NCBI GenBank assembly: GCA_964016885.1
Contig: OZ024745.1
Location: 57,784,001-57,848,000, forward strand
Origin: Eledone cirrhosa
Taxonomy: Eukaryota
Direction of reading: 5' to 3'
Length of the DNA: 64,000 nucleotides
Made by a program: the position numbers and the translations under genes. The notes under the pieces were generated by a model. It was not told where the DNA came from, did not search any database, and was given only the letters and a program-made list of their open reading frames with translations. This document shows, one piece after another, positions 1,209 to 48,090 of this stretch (its first letter is position 1; every line of letters begins with the position of its first letter).

Positions 1209-1689
1209 ATAGCAGAGTAATTCGTGGTAGCAGGACGGTCAGTAGGAATGGAGACACCATACCAAATCACTCAACTACTACGCGGATGCCTCATCGTCAA
1301 ACATAGGGAAAAGATACCACCACCATGATAGATGTAACAACTTCCCCGCTTCAAGGGGACAGCGAGGTAATTACCATTTTCTCAACTCTCGCTTCCACAA
1401 TACACAACAAACCCACACCACACGATACAACCAACAACGGAGGCCACTTATAACACCACAATACAACATGGCACATAGAAACACACACCCATACTCGCAG
1501 TACAGGAACACCCCATTCAATCTACAACCACCAACCCGAACCACATTTTACAACAACAAGGAATATAACAAACACAGGAGACCACTTAACATCAGCAGAC
1601 AACCCCTCTACCCCAACCATTTTTTAGACACAGCACACAGATAGAGGCAAACAAAATAACACAAGACAGGGAGGAGAAACCGATAGTAA

Positions 1690-2350
1690 TAAAAAGTATC
1701 AATCTTACTAGTGCAGAACCAACACCCAACCTTATCAACTTACTCTCCAAAGGTCTTAAATTCACACCGACCCCACTACGTCCTAACTACTATGAAATGA
1801 AGGAAGACATCACAGACTTCTGTAGAAAGTTACGACTTAGTGAACAACTATTCGACCAGTACAATGAGGATGAATCATTAGCCAGAAATAGAAGCAATTA
1901 CACCCCTTCAAAAGGTAGACATAAAATCATGGACAAATTCTGTGAACACATCACAAACTTCCCTAACCAACACTTGCACAGACAAAAACACAAGCCAAAC
2001 CTCAACAAGAAAGAATGGGAAGAATTAAATAGATTAAAAACCGACAGAACCATTACAATTAAAGAGGCTAATAAAGGGAGTACAGTAGTCCTAATGGAGA
2101 CAGAATTCTATATCAACTTAGCGCTCTCCACTTTGGAAAACGAAACATACTACGAAAAGGCTGAACACTACAATCAACAGAAAATTATGAGAAACCTAAA
2201 AACTCTAATCAACCAATACAAAGAAGGACTCACTAACAAGAAATTCACCTTCATCACAGACTTCACAAGTAAATCCAGCCTTTTCTACGGTATCCCTAAA
2301 GTACATAAAAGCGAATTAATAAGTAAGGCATGCAAGGAAGCCACAGACTC
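1690..2350 (+). pseudogene. Penelope-like element RT N-terminal fragment, truncated before the RT catalytic core
   Basis: In frame with ORF 1797-2387: KGLKFTPTP, DFCRKLRL, NLNKKEWEELNRLK, IKEANKGSTVVLM (IKxADKG motif), FYGIPKVHK, all typical PLE N-terminal motifs. Confidence 0.85.
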
Positions 2351-2938
2351 AGTCTTGGCGCAAAATCAATTTTTTACATTCACATGACTTCTACCGACCA
2401 ATCAAAATTGTTTTGACCGCAAGAATTTTTGCCACACCAAGTAGCGCTGGAGCCACTTTTTTAACATAAAAACAGTCTTGGCGCAAAATCAATTTTTTAC
2501 ATTCACATGACCTCTACCGACCAATCAAAATTGTTTTGACCACAAGAATTTTTGCAACACCAAGTAGCGCTGGAGCCACTTTTTTAACATAAAAACAGTC
2601 TTGGCGCAAAATCAATTTTTTACATTCACATGACCTCTACCGACTAATCAAAATTGTTTTGACCACAAGAATTTTTGCAACACCAAAGTAGCGCTGGAGA
2701 CACTTTTTTAACATAAAAACAGGTAGAATTCCCAAAACTAATAAGATCAGAGCAAACAACACGGACACTCTATCTCAAAATTACTTTTGAAAAGCATTTA
2801 GAAATGCGCAACCGGTAAAAACTTAAAAACTTAAAACCACAACTGAATACTAACCCATACAATTACTAATACTCTTTTATTCCTAATTAAACTATTTTTC
2901 AACTGTGAACAATTTGTCAGCATTTTCTATTCCGTTTA

Positions 2939-2943
<5 letters not shown>
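2350..2943 (+). repeat. PLE terminal repeat with 123-bp triplicated 5' segment, ending in (TA)n
   Basis: cagtcttggcgcaaaatc recurs at 2350, 2473 and 2596; the third copy continues to 2943 and runs into (TA)n. Confidence 0.85.
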
Positions 2944-3017
<74 letters not shown>

Positions 3018-12534: not shown

Positions 12535-12752
12535 TGTATGTATGTATTAAAACAGTTATGTATCAACATTTGTATATCTTACCGCAGTCAATTATCGAAC
12601 TAACCACAATAGTTTCGAAGTCATGGAATGGGCTTTATATAAAGCCAATTCCCTGACTTCGAAACAATTGTGATTAGTTCGACAATTGATCTACAGACTG
12701 CGGTAAGATATCATACACATGTTGATACATAACTGTTTTAATACATACATAC
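12535..12752. mobile_element. Palindromic element centred on an HHR stem-II-like hairpin
   Basis: Imperfect ~105-bp arms around ggctttatataaagcc (12631-12646); right arm reads tgacttc-GAAA-caattg-tg (palindromic stem III). Confidence 0.7.
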
Positions 12753-12788
12753 ATAGATACATACATACATACATACATACATACATAC

Positions 12789-15181
12789 TACTGCCAACAT
12801 GTCCAGACAAAACAATATGACATAGATGGGTCAATACTGGAAACAGCTCTACAGAAAATGTCGAATAGGAAATCGCCAGGCCCAGACCTCATTACAGGAT
12901 ACTGGTTGAAGAATTTCACTTTCTATCGGCAAGATCTCATACGGCTGTTTACAGAAACCATTAAGGGCACACAAGAACTGCCCAGATGGTTATCAACTGC
13001 CACTACTCTCCTCATTCCCAAAAATAGCCAAACCACCCTTGCTAAAAATTACCGCCCAATTGCCTGCCAAAACATCATGTATAAATTATATACTGGGTGC
13101 CTTAACCTGTTCTTACAGGATCACTGTGCTACCAACAACATCATAACACCTGAGCAAGCTGGTGGAAAGAGGGAGGTGTGGGGTTGCATAGATCACCTAC
13201 TAACTAACAAAATGATTCAGGAAAAAACAACAAAGAATCGCAGAAACAAGACTGTCGTGTGGCTGGACTATCAAAAAGCATTTGATAGTGTACCTCATGG
13301 GTGGATTATTAAGGCTTTACAGTTAGCTAAAGTCCCACAACCATTAGTAGCTGCTGTTGAACGCCTGACCAAGAACTGGTACACCAATTTGATCCTTAGA
13401 GGTGAGAAGGAGCAGGTTAAGACTGATAGGATACATTACCAGAAGGGCATCTTTCAGGGTGATAGCTTGTCAGTACTATTCTTCGTTCTCTCACTGAATC
13501 CACTATCTTACCTACTCAGGAAACAAGGTGGACAAAGAAGTGGGCCCAGAAGTATCTCCCATCTTTTCTTTGTTGATGACCTGAAGTTGTATGGGCCAAA
13601 TATCAATGACATCAAGAAACAATTGGACCTCATTACACAATTTTCAACCGACATCAAAATGAAATTTGGTGAGTCCAAGTGTGCATATTTGGCAGTAAAA
13701 CGTGGAAGAGCTGTGCCCTCCTCTAGAAATCTAGATATGAACGGCCTGACAATACAACCTCTGCAGTCAGGTGACAACTACAGATATCTTGGACAGGATG
13801 AGAATGTCAGATATGATGGACCCATAAATAAGGAGAGAACCAGAACTGAATACCTCAGAAGAGTAAAAAAAATATGGTCATCAGAACTGTCAGCATACAA
13901 CAAATACATTGCCCACAATACCTATGCTGTGCCAATTATAACGCCAACATTTGGCCTACTGAACTGGTCATTGCAAGAACTAAGTGAGATGGATGTTAGA
14001 ACTCGTAAACTTCTCAGTGTTACTGGGAACTTTAACATCAATGGTGATGTGGATAGGCTATACTTCTCACGCAAGGAAGGTGGCCGGGGTCTAAAATCAA
14101 TATTAACAACATATGAGACCCGGATAGTAACACTGAAGCAACACCTTCAACAGAGGAAAAAGGTTGGCGACCATCTTGCTCAGGTTTATGAGCATGAAAA
14201 AAGAAATATCATTAGAATAGCGACTGATCTGGAGGAGAGATATGGAATAAAGCCTGATATAAATCTCTCACCCAGAGAAATCGGAAGATCCTATTCAATG
14301 TTCAAACAAGAAAAAAAAATTGACCAATTTACAGAGAAAGTTGTGCATGGATACTTGAGGCGTAAAACACAGACCATAGAGGGGATAAACCACTCAAAAA
14401 GCCTGGCATGGAGTTCCGACAAGTTTATGACATCACACCTTGAGGGATATCTCTATGCAATACAGGAACAAGAACTCCCTACCAAATATCTGCTGCACAA
14501 AAGAGGAGGGCCAGCAGCTGACAATAAATGTAGGCTATGTAAAACAAAGATCGAGGATGTAAGCCACATTGTTGCCAGCTGCGAAAGAATGTCATCTCGC
14601 TACTACCTCCCCATGAGACACGATGGGATAGCTAGAACTATCTGGAACGCACTTCGGAAAACAAAATTAACAACAAACGAGGAAGAATATATTGAGACAG
14701 ATGGCACTAAGGAATACTGGTGGAACCTGAAAATAAAAACTGCCACCAAATTAAAGCACAACCGGCCTGATATTGTAGTTTGGGACCACACATTGAAAAC
14801 GTGTTCTGTTGTGGAGATCAGCTGCCCACTTGATGTAAACGTTGTCAGAAAAATACAGGAGAAGGAGGACATCTACGGACCATTGATGAGGAGCTTACAA
14901 ATCCAGTATCCAAGATACACCTTTAGCTTCATACCCATCATTATTGGTGCTACGGGTTATATACCAACCCGCTTGGACCAAAGTATGACCGAACTTGGAT
15001 TTGCGGACAAAAAGCGCAGCTCCCTAATTCATAGTCTACAAATGGCTGCGATAGCTGGCACCTTCAAAATATGCAAAACATTCTTGCGATTCAAGGGATG
15101 ACAATTTCTTTTCTTTTACAACCTTGCCACCAGGAAGGTGGCCGGTCAAAAAAATATACTCGAAATTAAGAGAAAGAGAAA
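12789..15181 (+). mobile_element. 5'-truncated R4/Dong-clade RLE non-LTR retrotransposon inserted in (TACA)n
   Basis: RT-CCHC-RLE ORF with short 3' UTR; (CATA)n arrays at 12742-12788 and 15182-15245. Confidence 0.85.
12858..15101 (+). CDS. Reverse transcriptase + CCHC knuckle + restriction-like endonuclease (747 aa, uninterrupted, N-terminally truncated)
   Basis: KSPGPD, NYRPIAC, LDYQKAFDSVPH, GIFQGDSLS, LFFVDDLKLY, YRYLG, EGGRGL, CRLC..HIVASC, RHD, RPDIVV..VEISCP..K. Confidence 0.92.
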   Translation: MSNRKSPGPDLITGYWLKNFTFYRQDLIRLFTETIKGTQELPRWLSTATTLLIPKNSQTTLAKNYRPIACQNIMYKLYTGCLNLFLQDHCATNNIITPEQAGGKREVWGCIDHLLTNKMIQEKTTKNRRNKTVVWLDYQKAFDSVPHGWIIKALQLAKVPQPLVAAVERLTKNWYTNLILRGEKEQVKTDRIHYQKGIFQGDSLSVLFFVLSLNPLSYLLRKQGGQRSGPRSISHLFFVDDLKLYGPNINDIKKQLDLITQFSTDIKMKFGESKCAYLAVKRGRAVPSSRNLDMNGLTIQPLQSGDNYRYLGQDENVRYDGPINKERTRTEYLRRVKKIWSSELSAYNKYIAHNTYAVPIITPTFGLLNWSLQELSEMDVRTRKLLSVTGNFNINGDVDRLYFSRKEGGRGLKSILTTYETRIVTLKQHLQQRKKVGDHLAQVYEHEKRNIIRIATDLEERYGIKPDINLSPREIGRSYSMFKQEKKIDQFTEKVVHGYLRRKTQTIEGINHSKSLAWSSDKFMTSHLEGYLYAIQEQELPTKYLLHKRGGPAADNKCRLCKTKIEDVSHIVASCERMSSRYYLPMRHDGIARTIWNALRKTKLTTNEEEYIETDGTKEYWWNLKIKTATKLKHNRPDIVVWDHTLKTCSVVEISCPLDVNVVRKIQEKEDIYGPLMRSLQIQYPRYTFSFIPIIIGATGYIPTRLDQSMTELGFADKKRSSLIHSLQMAAIAGTFKICKTFLRFKG

Positions 15182-15580: not shown

Positions 15581-17697
15581 CTAACAGCGCTGCGATCGAA
15601 TGTGGCTTTTTAGCCCAGCCAATGATCTAAAATGTCTTGCACAGAGTCGGCAACCAAAACATTCACTGGGAATAGTCGGCTGTGGTTGGAGTTCGTGTAC
15701 TTTTGCATGTCGCTTGAGCCCTCCTGCTGATTTAGATTCTCTATCACATGTTTGGCAAGCATGATGAGTAGCATCTCCAACAGCAGCCTGGTATCCAACC
15801 ACTGGTCTTTCTTTATGACTGCGAAGATGACTTTCGAGTCCAGCTTTGCTTAGGCAGAGTCTCGCACATACGCTGCATGTCAGCACCATAGGAGGACCCT
15901 CGCCGTCTGGAAGTGCAACAGTAATGCCCTTCCTCACATCCGGCTTTACTTTCTCGTATGCGATTCGAGATGCCTCAAAGGCAACTTTTCCCTTATATAC
16001 AGTCTTTCTCCATTTATTACGATCAGCAGCAATATTCTCCCATGTATCAGCAGAGATGTTAGCGTCTTTCAGAGAGGCTTTCAAGGAATCCTTATATCTC
16101 TTTTTTGGTTTATGTGGCGGTCGTTTTCCTTTAACAATCTCTCCATAAAAGAGTTGTTTTGGTATTCTAGAATCCTTCATCCTGGCAAGGTGACCACTCC
16201 AACGGAGTCGTTGCTTAAGCACAAGAGCTTCTATACTGTCACACATAGAGCTTTCCAAAATCTCGACATCACTGATGTGGTCCCTCCAGTGAACGCCATG
16301 GATCCGTCTGAGACACATCTGATGGAAACGCTCCAATTGCTTAAGGTGGTGTCGATATGTGACCCAGGTCTCGCAGGCATAAAGAAGACAAGAGAGCACA
16401 CATGCCCTGTACACCTTTACCTTTGTCCTCCTGCATATGTCTCGCCGACCCCAGAGTCGCCTTTCTAGCTTTCCGAAAGCATCACTTGCTTTCCTAATCC
16501 TAAGTGAGATTTCACTGTCAAGGTTGCTGTGTCGATTGACAGTGCTTCCCAGGTAGACAAACTGATCAACCACTCCAAGTCGTTTGCCATACACATAGAT
16601 GTTTGGCTCAGTGTACTGCTTACCAGGGGCAGGTTGGTACATGACGACGGTTTTCGTGAGACTGACAGTCAGACCTAGGGCAGTGCAAGCGTCAGAAAAT
16701 GCATTCAAAATGTGCTGCATATCACTCTACAAGATCGCAATCATCTGCATACAAGAGGTCTCTTATGATTGATGTAAACACTTTTGTCTTCGCAGCAAAG
16801 CGCCTGATGTTAAATATGCTGCCTGAGGTTCGATATCGGATGTAAACACCATGCTCGCAATTCCTGAATGCAATACAGAAAACCATTGCAAAGTATATGG
16901 CAAACAGGGTCGGTGCTGGAATATCCCCCTGCTTCACTCCATTTTTTACTGAGATAGGCTCTGACATGTTACCCCCGACATTAACCCAGCCTTTATGTCG
17001 TCATGGAAAGACCTAACTAAAGCAAGGAACTTATCAGGGCAACCAAGTTTCTGGAGAACCTTCCATAATGCATCTCTGTTAACAGTATCGAAAGCTTTTG
17101 TCAGATCGACAAAAACCTGATACAGATCCAAGCCTTGTCCATGCACTTCTCCTGGAGCTGTCTAGCTGAGAAGATCATATCAGTAGTGCCGCGTCCAGCA
17201 CGAAAACCAGATTGACTTTCAGGAAGAACACAATCTGCAATGTGTGTCAGCAGACGGTCCAGAAGCACCCTACATAAAACTTTCCCTACGACAGAAAGCA
17301 ATGATATACCTACGTAGTTCCCACAATCGTTCCTGTTACCCTTTCCCTTGTACAAGACCACCATTACTGCATCTCTCCAGTCCTCAGGTACGGATTCATT
17401 AGCCCATATCCTGCCAAAAAAAGAGTGAAGATGTTGCAGGAGTCTCTCACCACCATATTGTAGGAGCTCAGCATGTATGCCATCCATACCTGGAGATCTT
17501 CCACTGTTCATCTTCGAAATAGCCACTGCAACCTCCACAAGCGTCGGAGGTTCTGCGAGAGCTACTTTCACAGGACTTTCTGGAATGAGATTGAGGAAAT
17601 CTTCACTGACGACAGACGGCTGATTCAAAAGATCATCAAAGTGCTCTCGCCACCTTCGTAGAATTCCTTGTGAGTCACGAAGAAGTTTTTTTGCCAT
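15581..17697 (-). pseudogene. RTE RT domain and C-terminus, split over 4 ORFs
   Basis: ORFs 17101-17697, 16946-17146, 16722-16967 and 15581-16720 carry consecutive RT motifs. Confidence 0.9.
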
Positions 17698-18920
17698 TCT
17701 TGCTGCGAAGCGGTGTCACCAGAGAAGAAGACGGTCCATAAACCTCACGCAAGAGACTGTACAACAGCTTTGTGTTAATGGAATCAGACGCAGTTTGTAT
17801 CTCACCAGCCTTCTCACTCCACCACTGATCCTTCATCTGAGAAAGACTCCGCCTAACACGTGATTTTACATCCCTGAGTTCCTCATGCAACGTATTCCTC
17901 TCCTGTGGTTTTGCCGTCAAGTAGCGTGACAGAGCACGCCTCTTATCAGCCAACAAGTCTTCTATATGTACATCATTCTCATCAAACCAGTCCTGATGTT
18001 TATTCTGCGCCAATCCCAGAAATTGCCTGCCTACATCATAAACCGACTTTTTAAGGGTCGGCCAATCCTCACCAAGATCTGCAGCCTGCATCTCTTCTTC
18101 CAATGTCCTCTTCACATTTTTATCCTTAAGACGAGCAGCATTCAATCTTTTGGGCAGGGCAACACCAGGAGCCCGGATTTTACGTTTAGTGATTAGTTTC
18201 ACTTTTGCGCGTAGCAGGCGGTGGTCCGTCCAGCACTCAGCTCCACGAAGAACACGAACACACTGCACATCCTGTCTGTCACGCATCCTGACTAGGACGT
18301 AGTCCAAAAGATGCAATTCCTTAGATGCAGGATGCATCCATGTGGTCTTGAATTTGTTCTTTTGTTGGAACATGGTGTTGGTAACACACAGATCCAGCTC
18401 CTCACACATCTGCAGCAGGAGCATACCATTGCTGTTACACTTTCCCACCCCATGCCTTCCGATTACATTCCATGTGTTGTCTGCCTGAGGTATATTTCTT
18501 AAAACACCTTTCAAGGCATGGTAAAAGGACATCTTTTCCTCATCGACAGAACTCATAGTTGGAGCATACACACTCACCAGGGTAGCATATCTTCCCTTGT
18601 CCAGCGGAACTCTCATGGACATAAGACGCTCACTAATCCCTACTGGGAAATCTTCTAATTTGTTCACAAGCACAGTCTTAACAGCAAATCCTACCCCAGC
18701 CTCTCTTCTGGTTCCTTCATCTCTTCCTTTCCAGAAGAATGTATATTCTCCACAAAATTCCGTAAGATGACCATCTCCAGCTAGCCTCGTCTCAGATAAA
18801 GCCACGATGTCAAGATCGTAACGTCGAAGCTCCTTTGCAACAAGAGCGGTCCTTCGTTCAGGACGCCCCAAGGAATCCCTGTCAAGCAGCGTCCGTACGT
18901 TCCAACAGCCAAGACTAAAT
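17675..18920 (-). pseudogene. RTE apurinic-like endonuclease domain
   Basis: ORF 17675-18871 plus upstream in-frame CWNVRT; the GDFNA motif appears deleted (NIPQAD|NTWNVIGRHG). Confidence 0.85.
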
Positions 18921-19098
18921 GCCTTGTTTGGCTCTATTACAATGGCACGATGACGAGCGGGCCCAGGCTGTGATAACCTGGGGCCCCTGCCCTTATTCCC
19001 AATGATCTTTTTTTGTTCCAGAACCTAAATTGCCAATTATCTCTTTTATATTGTTCTGGAACATCATTGAATTGGAAAAAAAAAAAAAAAAAAAAAAG

Positions 19099-45832: not shown

Positions 45833-45837
<5 letters not shown>

Positions 45838-46058
45838 AACCAGTAAGACCCCGACAGCTGAGCTCAAGCCGTTTCGACGGCTAATTCTGGACTAGAATTA
45901 GCCGTTTCGACGGCTAATTCTAGTCCAGAATTAGCCGTCGAAACGGCTTGAGCTCAGCTGTCGGGGTCTTACTGGTTCCTATTACCCACTCTACTACCTC
46001 AAGTATTGAGTACTTTGGTGCGTTATGGTCCACCTGGTTCCTTACCACATTTCCTTCG

Positions 46059-46469: not shown

Positions 46470-46812
<343 letters not shown>

Positions 46813-47853
46813 GTACATTACGAAGAGAGAAGAAACATTTAGATATAATTAGTAATAAAATGTATCATACCTAAACTGCTCCTAGATTCCTCGACTACGT
46901 AGTTTCGTGGCATAAACAAAAACAATACATCATAAAGATATAGAGTCCTTGCGAGGTCTGCCGACTTATCAAGAGGATACCTCATTTTACTAGTCTCAAG
47001 AACGCGTCTACACGACGTGAGAAAGAATCCCAAAAGGCGGAGGGGGAGATAGTCACGCGATATAACGGTCGAGAAACAGAGCTAAGCCTCTTATAACCCC
47101 GAAGAAAATACCACAGAGGCGGAGGGGGTATTTATATCGAAGCCGTAGAAGAGGTGGTGAAGGAGGCGAGAAGTATGAGTAATGGAAGCTTTCCAGCAGT
47201 CCCCACACTTCAAAGATTGCTCGACCAGAGGGAGTTATTAACAATATATTTAGAAACACACAGATACATGCGGACACACACATATACATGAATGCATCCG
47301 CACCCAACCGTGAGTTAAGGGTGCCAACTTCACCGATGTTGCTCAATGAATGACTGACGGCTTCGATATAAATACACCCTCCGCCTCCGTGGTATTTTCT
47401 TCGTGGTTATAAGAGGCTTAGATTTGTTTCTCGACCGTTATATCGCGTGACTATCTCCCCCTCCGCCTTTTGGGATTCATTCTCACGTCGTGTAGACGCG
47501 TTCTTGAGACTAGTAAAATGAGGTATCCTCTTGATAAGTCGGCAAACCTCGCAAGGACTCTATATCTTTATGATGTATTGTTTTTGTTTATGCCACGAAA
47601 CTACGTAGTCGAGGAATCTAGGAGCAGTTTAGGTATGATACATTTTATTACTAATTATATCTAAATGTTTCTTCTCTCTTCGTAATGTATTTTTAACTCT
47701 GATACTGGTTCAGTCTAGTTCAACCGGATTGGTCTGTCCCAGTGATTCATTGAGCAACATCGGTGAAGTTGGCACCCTTAACTCACGGTTGGGTGCGGAT
47801 GCATTCATGTATATGTGTGTGTCCGCATGTATCTGTGTGTTTCTAAATATATT
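46813..47853. mobile_element. Retrozyme-like non-coding HHR element: two inverted, circularly permuted partial copies of a ~590-nt unit
   Basis: 46813-47146 is the reverse complement of 47357-47690; 47243-47356 is the reverse complement of 47740-47853. Confidence 0.8.
47526..47615 (+). ncRNA. Type I hammerhead, U3-A8 core variant (mirror copy 46888-46977 on minus strand)
   Basis: tcctc-TTGATAA-gt(c)ggca...tgccac-GAAA-ctacgtag-TC^-gagga. Confidence 0.8.
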
Positions 47854-47884
47854 ATAAATATATGTATATATATATACACACATA

Positions 47885-47922
<38 letters not shown>

Positions 47923-47988
47923 CATATATATTTATATATATACATATATATATATGTGTTTGTGTGTGTAAATATATGTAAATATATG

Positions 47989-48030
<42 letters not shown>

Positions 48031-48058
48031 TGTGTTTGTGTGTGTAAATATATGTAAA

Positions 48059-48090
<32 letters not shown>

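Follow-up and report, generated by a model that had tools for sequence, protein, structure and literature searches.

A protein-free 593-nt repeat of Eledone cirrhosa with two fixed 3' ends: very probably a non-autonomous retrozyme of Penelope-like type

Results and discussion

Layout of the locus

The window analysed here (64,000 nt, positions 57784001-57848000 of the forward strand in a 3.0-Gb host genome) contains two inverted arms of one repeat, joined blunt, 5' to 5', with both 3' ends facing outward into a TA-rich microsatellite (Table 1). Unit positions (m) are counted from window position 47357 and define the segments A (m1-334), B (m335-383), C (m384-497) and D (m498-593), which sum to a unit of 593 nt (334+49+114+96). 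When the two arms of the window are aligned, their A copies are identical at 326 of 334 positions and their C copies at 113 of 114. An earlier note, made from the sequence of this stretch, had arranged these pieces into an A-B-C-D cycle of about 590 nt. Both coordinates and order hold, and a natural head-to-tail unit at locus L009, where two matches on contig C15 lie exactly 593 apart, has the same order and agrees with the window pieces A, B, C and D at 326/334, 49/49, 113/114 and 95/96 positions, respectively. The D-A and B-C junctions that such a cycle implies occur together in one copy at L005, L006, L008, L009, L016 and L020. Between m20 and m189 the right arm (47357-47545) departs from the L009 unit at six places where the left arm does not; this is well above the 0.4% typical inside a locus, and a template switch, clustered reverse transcriptase (RT) errors or sequencing error may account for it.

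Table 1. Features of the repeat locus. Positions are those of the window; m, unit position.
Feature	Position	Strand	Detail	Basis
Left (TA)n-rich microsatellite	46470..46812	.	Target	
Left arm, 0.92 unit	46813..47356	-	m384-593 then m1-333/334; 5'-truncated at m384 (47356); 3' end at fixed site m334 (46813/46814), outward, into (TA)n	
Second hammerhead-like copy, left arm	46888..46977	-	Predicted cut after 46893	A copies aligned
D segment	47147..47242	-	Completes cycle from C to A	Alignment
Right arm, 0.84 unit	47357..47853	+	m1-497; 5'-truncated at m1; 3' end at fixed site m~497, outward, into (TA)n	
TATA-like TATAAATA	47367..47374	+	m11-18, inside 5'-end-enriched zone	Sequence
Type I hammerhead-like motif, right arm	47526..47615	+	Predicted cut after 47610	Motif scan, alignment
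Predicted long hairpin just 5' of m334 end	47611..47681	+	Occupies 3' strand of hammerhead stem I	Prediction
Splice-donor-like AG/GTATGA	47631..47638	+	m276/277	Sequence, one contig
B+C, between the two fixed 3' ends	47691..47853	+	163 nt; equivalent of the tail of Penelope-like elements	
Predicted long hairpin just 5' of m497 end	47781..47841 (approximate)	+		Prediction
Right (TA)n-rich microsatellite	47854..48090	.	Target	

Several other repeats lie in the window. These include a palindromic element of about 145 nt between (TA)n runs (45836-45980), which has a 33-nt internal repeat and is also found at L135; part of a Neptune-type Penelope-like element (PLE) of the L132/L138 family (1250-3005), whose frame 1590-2387 matches the N-terminal part of the L126/L127 proteins; and LINE remnants (12726-15101 and 17675-19024), with frames that carry RT and zf-RVT domains and an Exo_endo_phos domain, respectively.

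A dispersed family without coding capacity

The window locus is one young copy of a protein-free 593-base repeat that is present thousands of times. An exact 23-mer of the hammerhead occurs 7,458 times genome-wide against 0 for the reversed control, which excludes a chance origin. A variant hammerhead pattern gave 334 further genomic sites, and most of the 30 that were fetched are older subfamilies (69-87% identity) with the same ends. Head-to-tail arms reach 4.9 units elsewhere in the genome.

The absence of a credible open reading frame (ORF), as the earlier note had it, is borne out by a longest stop-free stretch of 134 codons in the unit, by the lack of a Pfam match for the overlapping 117-aa frame of the window, and by seven full older units (567-596 nt) whose longest ATG frame is 38-77 aa. 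No ORF combining RT and GIY-YIG endonuclease was found in the family (window, variant-pattern loci and free 5' flanks), nor did the locus maps show an LTR pair; the (TA)n flanks make any target site duplication unreadable. A longer, ORF-bearing element with A and C as its ends was looked for in the variant loci, in 70 PLE loci and in the 5' flanks, and was absent from them. We classify the family with high confidence as a non-autonomous retrozyme of PLE type (non-LTR retrozyme).

Two further observations concern the family at large. Near-identical unit sequence is present at low depth in public runs of two other organisms (X5 and X6; kind of run not on record). In four older copies, an element of about 0.9-1.0 kb sits exactly at m333/334, in both orientations (L242:1589-2494, L250:445-1435, L258:553-1432 and L239:468-1427), making this position a possible insertion hot spot; its TC...CTAG ends and 3' hairpin give the nested element a Helitron-like look.

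Two fixed 3' ends and their pairing

Ends were mapped in two samples. The first comprised the 23-mer places listed first on contig C1, which are ordered by position (50 stretches, 48 of them with arms of at least 88% identity, 75 arms in all). Here 36 of the 3' ends fall at m334, 35 at m~497 and 4 elsewhere, and 68 of the 71 canonical ends have a TA-rich flank. The scatter of start points around the circle that the earlier note anticipated is thus found for the 5' truncation points and not for the 3' ends, which occupy two sites in 71 of 75 arms. Genome-wide there are 1,935 m334-to-TATA junctions and, for m497, 978 forward-strand matches (the reverse count being inflated by a variable gap), and judging from these match counts the two ends are used about equally.

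The second sample consisted of 60 loci on the m334 junction, drawn from the first 100 listed of the 1,935, with 1 segmental duplicate and 1 stray fragment dropped; it contains 29 inverted 334/497 loci, 28 single arms, 2 complex loci and 1 locus with an odd partner end. When both samples are pooled, leaving aside 3 complex loci, an m334 end is combined with an m~497 end at 50 of the 53 two-arm inverted loci, and two ends of the same kind at none; the remaining 3 have an odd end. Neither fixed end coincides with the predicted ribozyme cut. A predicted long hairpin, kept across subfamilies, precedes each of them by a few bases, and two-sided changes are seen in 4 of the 62 predicted pairs of this end-hairpin region.

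The one-of-each pairing matches both the PLE tail and the two internal RT starts of PAc, a Poseidon element whose tail spans the interval from one internal RT start site to the other (PMC11167929). The insertions have further hallmarks of PLE anatomy, namely 5' truncation, partial tandems, an inverted 5'-truncated copy, a tail at one end only and a (TA)n target; the sections of PMC8557442 on insertion structure describe the same set, with microsatellites as targets. It is important to note that the same appearance results from any partial tandem of a PLE that is accompanied by an inverted, 5'-truncated copy (PMC8557442), and the permutation and inversion seen in the window are therefore no proof of a circle. 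Where the earlier note took them to imply a circular RNA or a head-to-tail multimer, as in retrozymes, the head-to-tail multimers and the retrozyme reading stand, and the circle requires other evidence.

5' ends and passage through the predicted cut site

Unlike the 3' ends, the 5' ends are scattered along the unit. Over 159 arms, drop-off amounts to 1.22 per kb in the background, 3.25 per kb at m1-85 and 2.55 per kb at m420-490, both zones having been picked after inspection of the data. Around the predicted cut it is 1.83 per kb (7 events) vs 1.22 in the background, with no clear pile-up of 5' ends. The cut site is crossed by 140 of the 159 arms, at least twice by 57 and five times by 2, so that the template is not simply a cleaved linear monomer. 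Past the first lap, arms drop off about 1.5 times as often (p = 0.04), the excess lying at 900-1,200 nt travelled.

The enrichment at m1-85 is spread across 80 nt with no sharp start site. The sequence at m11-18 is TATA-like; it may act as a promoter, and given the enrichment near it some templates may be linear, promoter-started transcripts.

Twin priming of the L1 type was considered and set aside, as m497 arms show no cluster of 5' ends in the stretch immediately above m334 (2 of 31 at m335-360). A literature search returned no published work linking 'retrozyme' with 'twin priming'.

Hammerhead-like motif and RNA structure

The earlier claim of exactly one hammerhead per unit agrees with a motif scan, in which the sense strand of the unit has a single type I hammerhead-like motif and the antisense strand has none. 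It is built of a 5-bp stem I, the core UUGAUAA (a U3-A8 variant), a bulged stem II with a hairpin extension of about 50 nt, GAAA, the palindromic stem III ACUACGUAGU and GUC at m252-254, m254 being window position 47610. The hammerheads of PLEs are described as having U3-A8, a small palindromic helix III and a large helix II, and as cleaving weakly, as dimers (PMC4209133, in part). Measured against the minimal hammerheads of that source, the motif shares U3-A8, the short helix I, the large bulged helix II, the palindromic helix III, G10.1-C11.1 and a build suited to dimers, and differs in the hairpin extension of helix II and in having no unpaired base between positions 9 and 10.1.

In an alignment of 30 motif copies, the 3' half of which is preset by the search pattern, 96% of cells pair, which does not exceed the shuffle control, and a covariation test of the hammerhead stems in these copies found no pair with two-sided change. 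Rfam returned no hammerhead for the window at gathering score or at E<=10, the only matches at E<=10 being weak ones to miRNAs. The hammerhead is also not the predicted equilibrium fold, the probability of stem I being at most 0.08 in 15 of 16 folding windows. The predicted circular fold of the unit, in which 64% of bases are paired, has z = -6.2 for the sense strand vs -0.5 for the antisense strand (60 shuffles), and seven older units give -2.9 to -6.1 vs -0.1 to -2.7 (20 shuffles each). The predicted fold is far better than its shuffles on the hammerhead strand only, which speaks for selection on RNA structure in that strand.

The stability of one strand only also bears on an exceedingly improbable alternative, in which a DNA-level repeat (a satellite, a fold-back element or a Helitron-like rolling circle) or an assembly artefact carries a ribozyme-like motif by chance. 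Tandem and inverted arrays can form in DNA, and the hammerhead stems lack two-sided covariation, as such an origin would allow. Against it stand, besides the folding, the fixed 3' ends combined with random 5' truncation, the strict 334/497 pairing and the short, dispersed arrays, as well as contigs of public run X1 (perhaps from the same sample as the assembly) in which the D-to-A joint and each of the TA junctions are present.

At the unrelated loci L131, L134, L136, L142, L283 and L267, further short type I hammerhead-like motifs were noticed, these having CUGAUGA-type cores; their recurrence points to more ribozyme-bearing families in this genome.

Variants shared between units

Variants were compared among 129 young loci (374 fragments), after removal of five older-subfamily loci and of duplicates and masking of gap-prone sites; the latter included apparent shared polymorphisms at m213-215, 368-371 and 496-500, which proved to be artefacts of gap placement. 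Sequences from the same locus diverge by 0.41%, about a third of the 1.25% seen between loci that share a subfamily; for all other comparisons the value is 2.46%. Both arms belong to the same subfamily at 37 of 38 inverted loci, the two main subfamilies being represented 21:14, and the sole exception, at one site, is the window locus itself.

Rare variants were defined as those in at most 3 of the 129 loci (i.e. under about 2%), which are themselves a sample of several thousand. Among 88 multi-unit loci, a rare variant is present in all units at 30 and in only some at 5; counted as variants, 44 are full and 6 partial. Fifteen loci have a rare variant common to both arms, and at L089 a private variant is found in 8 of 8 units. 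Both arms would thus derive from one RNA or one source locus. The predominance of rare variants present in all units indicates a recurring one-unit bottleneck, suggesting that a single unit is often amplified to many in a repeated monomer-to-multimer step. Variant sharing across so many loci calls for a monomer-sized template, a demand that a circle answers directly and that in-register template jumping answers as well; the sharing does not discriminate between them. Mosaics of two haplotypes or partly shared variants are present at a few loci (L020, L008, L013, L072 and L159), and mosaics such as L020 show that template switches or conversion occur. Given the sampling of 129 loci, there may be some dozens of homogeneous master arrays.

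Transcription

The four public runs used here are assembled contigs, from which ends, strand and level cannot be read. In run X4 (kind not on record), a single contig follows the unit up to m276 and then continues in sequence that has one genomic match (with one mismatch), located behind a pyrimidine-rich AG; this acceptor lies 3,690 nt downstream of AG/GTATGA in another family copy. Of 115 occurrences of the motif in L207-L266, some counted repeatedly because loci overlap, 109 have the GGTAT donor core. The single contig suggests a spliced sense transcript. At L267:5624-9900 (contig C22), a family copy may supply promoter and splice donor to a putative downstream exon.

A cyclic 621-nt contig in run X6 was not counted as evidence for a circle, as tandem DNA gives the same result. 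Nor can RNA reads across the GUC site, which the earlier note had suggested looking for, tell a circle from a tandem transcript, since the ligated junction is identical to tandem DNA.

Candidate partner enzymes

A Pfam search for GIY-YIG gave 10,597 candidates, of which 150 were scored and 70 loci fetched. These include autonomous PLE candidates with RT-endonuclease (EN) ORFs of up to 1,096 aa, and nearly all fall into six families with WKRYLDD and a CxxCxxC linker and one family with RYVDD. We label the former Neptune-type and take the latter to be Penelope/Poseidon-type. The CxxCxxC linker is given as a Neptune mark in PMC8557442. Three loci, L126, L127 and L128, have long open RT-EN frames (938, 844 and 1,096 aa) and may be PLEs that were active in the recent past.

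A U3-A8 hammerhead core, a palindromic stem III and (TA)n ends are common to four of the Neptune-type families; inverted copies in the L138 family pair one-of-each ends about 40 nt apart, and tails in three Neptune-type families of this genome measure roughly 30-60 nt. By analogy of ribozyme and target, the putative partner enzyme would be Neptune-type. An autonomous partner was not found via the GIY-YIG search, among the 70 loci, with variant hammerhead patterns or in 103 free 5' flanks. In particular, the 70 endonuclease-bearing loci, compared with young and old units, contain no terminal repeat homologous to the unit; the only family sequence among them is one inserted copy.

These data weigh on the proposal that the copies are 5'-truncated 3' terminal repeats (pLTR plus tail) of an autonomous PLE and not a self-standing family. 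Their end anatomy is that of ordinary PLE insertions (PMC8557442, in part), and at L167 (818-4010) 2.1 kb of PLE ORF is joined directly to m425 without intervening (TA)n. That ORF is of the L136 family, which is Penelope/Poseidon-type and not Neptune, and the remainder of it is not present on the other side within the locus; the fusion reflects either a template switch or an insertion with deletion. It is the one direct fusion in the 103 free 5' flanks (195 stretches), where only three PLE protein matches were found, the others being a neighbouring Neptune copy beyond the other arm at L198 and a weak match in L190. Arms with up to five consecutive units and nothing between them, the 70 PLE loci without a homologous repeat apart from the inserted copy, and older subfamilies that are likewise ORF-less units of about 590 nt also speak against truncated PLEs, an explanation that we regard as largely refuted and very unlikely.

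Some apparent leads were dismissed. Possible joins of Neptune elements and units at L198, L232 and L241 are separated by (TA)n and represent neighbouring insertions, short matches of the unit to Neptune loci (17-22 nt) are weak, with the 22-nt one antisense inside an ORF, and the sequence common to the L242, L250 and L258 flanks is an unrelated nested insertion.

Relation to known systems

Like metazoan non-LTR retrozymes (PMC7229834, in part; bioRxiv 10.64898/2026.07.22.740005), the family is made up of head-to-tail repeats that code for no protein and contain one type I hammerhead motif each, has thousands of copies and a predicted highly self-paired RNA, and shares its genome with PLEs; a circular template has been proposed there too. 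The unit is longer than the 170-400 nt given for retrozymes in part of PMC7229834 and lies within the 51-972 bp range of bioRxiv 10.64898/2026.07.22.740005. Whereas most animal retrozymes are predicted to leave the hammerhead free, the one described here has PLE-type features (U3-A8, long stem II) and would, by prediction, be blocked in the circle. Short dispersed arrays, inverted twin arms and two fixed ends characterize the present family, and end mapping of this kind does not appear in the cited parts of the retrozyme papers' main texts. No homologous PLE repeat was found here, whereas in Xenopus 24 of 57 retrozyme families matched a known transposable element, 21 of 22 matched elements being PLEs (Li, Clavereau and Pollet, bioRxiv 10.64898/2026.07.22.740005).

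With the endonuclease-bearing (EN+) PLEs PAc (PMC11167929) and Neptune/Naiad (PMC8557442, in part) the family shares 5' truncation, partial tandems, an inverted 5'-truncated copy and a tail at one end, as well as two internal RT start sites downstream of the hammerhead, AT-rich or (TA)n targets and a likely 5' intron donor. It differs from them in having no ORF and a tail of 163 nt vs 30-40 bp. The sequence at both of its ends is similar to the TA target; the start site of PAc, by contrast, has no homology to the DNA that is cut. Non-autonomous Chlamys elements such as MRC1 (PMC8557442) are likewise PLE-type and inserted in multicopy head-to-tail form; unlike the present family they are algal, their 3' ends resemble those of their autonomous partners, and most Chlamys are described as lacking canonical hammerheads. 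In the literature as searched by title or abstract opening, with Repbase, Dfam and most subscription journals outside that scope, neither the family nor a one-of-each rule for a retrozyme has been described.

Proposed mechanism and the nature of the template

The reading we favour, with a probability of roughly 0.55, is that a borrowed PLE RT-endonuclease cut (TA)n and began copying a single RNA, probably a circular monomer, from two fixed internal sites. Under this proposal, arrays would be transcribed on the hammerhead strand, and the hammerheads, likely as dimers or with protein help, would release 593-nt monomers that would then be ligated to circles. A PLE protein, probably a Neptune-type dimer, would nick both (TA)n strands, and the two cDNAs would start at different sites, m334 and m~497, in both cases immediately on the 3' side of a long hairpin. 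Each polymerase would circle the template and drop off at about 1.2-3 per kb, leaving 0.1-4.9 units; two cDNAs joined 5' to 5' would give an inverted locus, and one cDNA kept would give a single arm.

Circular RNAs have been demonstrated for other animal retrozymes (PMC7229834, in part), and a circular template for PLE or retrozyme tandems was proposed in 2014 and in 2020, as a proposal and not a demonstration in the passages concerned (PMC4209133, PMC7229834). The circle in our scheme is weakened by the poorly predicted hammerhead fold, the absence of covariation, the blank Rfam result and the behaviour of PAc in vitro, where hammerhead cleavage is dispensable and uncleaved RNA is the dominant substrate (PMC11167929). 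The scheme as a whole is further weakened by the absence of a homologous terminal repeat among the 70 endonuclease-bearing loci and by the L167 fusion, which involves a Penelope/Poseidon-type ORF in place of a Neptune one.

A serious competitor, at clearly less than even odds, retains the same element and enzyme and replaces the circle by a linear template. Uncleaved read-through transcripts of arrays would be copied, length would occasionally be regained by in-register template jumping of the RT or unequal crossing-over, and the hammerhead would be weak or have another job. PAc does take unprocessed multimeric RNA in vitro (PMC11167929), and the poor prediction of the hammerhead fold, the 5' ends enriched at m1-85, the greater drop-off after the first lap, the hint of a spliced, linear transcript from one contig, and mosaic loci of the L020 kind, which require a switch between two haplotypes, are all in keeping with such a template. 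Linear copying alone, however, shortens arrays every generation and should transmit unit-specific variants, which is at odds with the 44 full vs 6 partial variants; jumping off the end of a cleaved monomer should leave 5' ends at m255, of which few were found; and the m1-85 enrichment, spanning 80 nt as it does, is no sharp start site.

Conclusions

The fullest form of the circular-template reading, which we place just short of even odds, is that these thousands of insertions record a dimer of PLE enzyme on a single circular ribozyme RNA, priming both strands of one broken microsatellite at two fixed sites 163 nt apart and rolling round twice over. If true, they would be a direct genomic footprint of rolling-circle reverse transcription, and a protein-free lineage would have kept this anatomy across about 25% divergence without a homologous autonomous parent. 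As the family is short, young and abundant, it yields statistics that long, truncated PLEs cannot give, including (i) a strict one-of-each start rule, (ii) read-through of the ribozyme site, and (iii) variant sharing that demands a monomer bottleneck. The family is a ready substrate for deciding between circular and linear templates and, judging by its sequence, may scatter a likely promoter and splice donor across thousands of sites in the genome.
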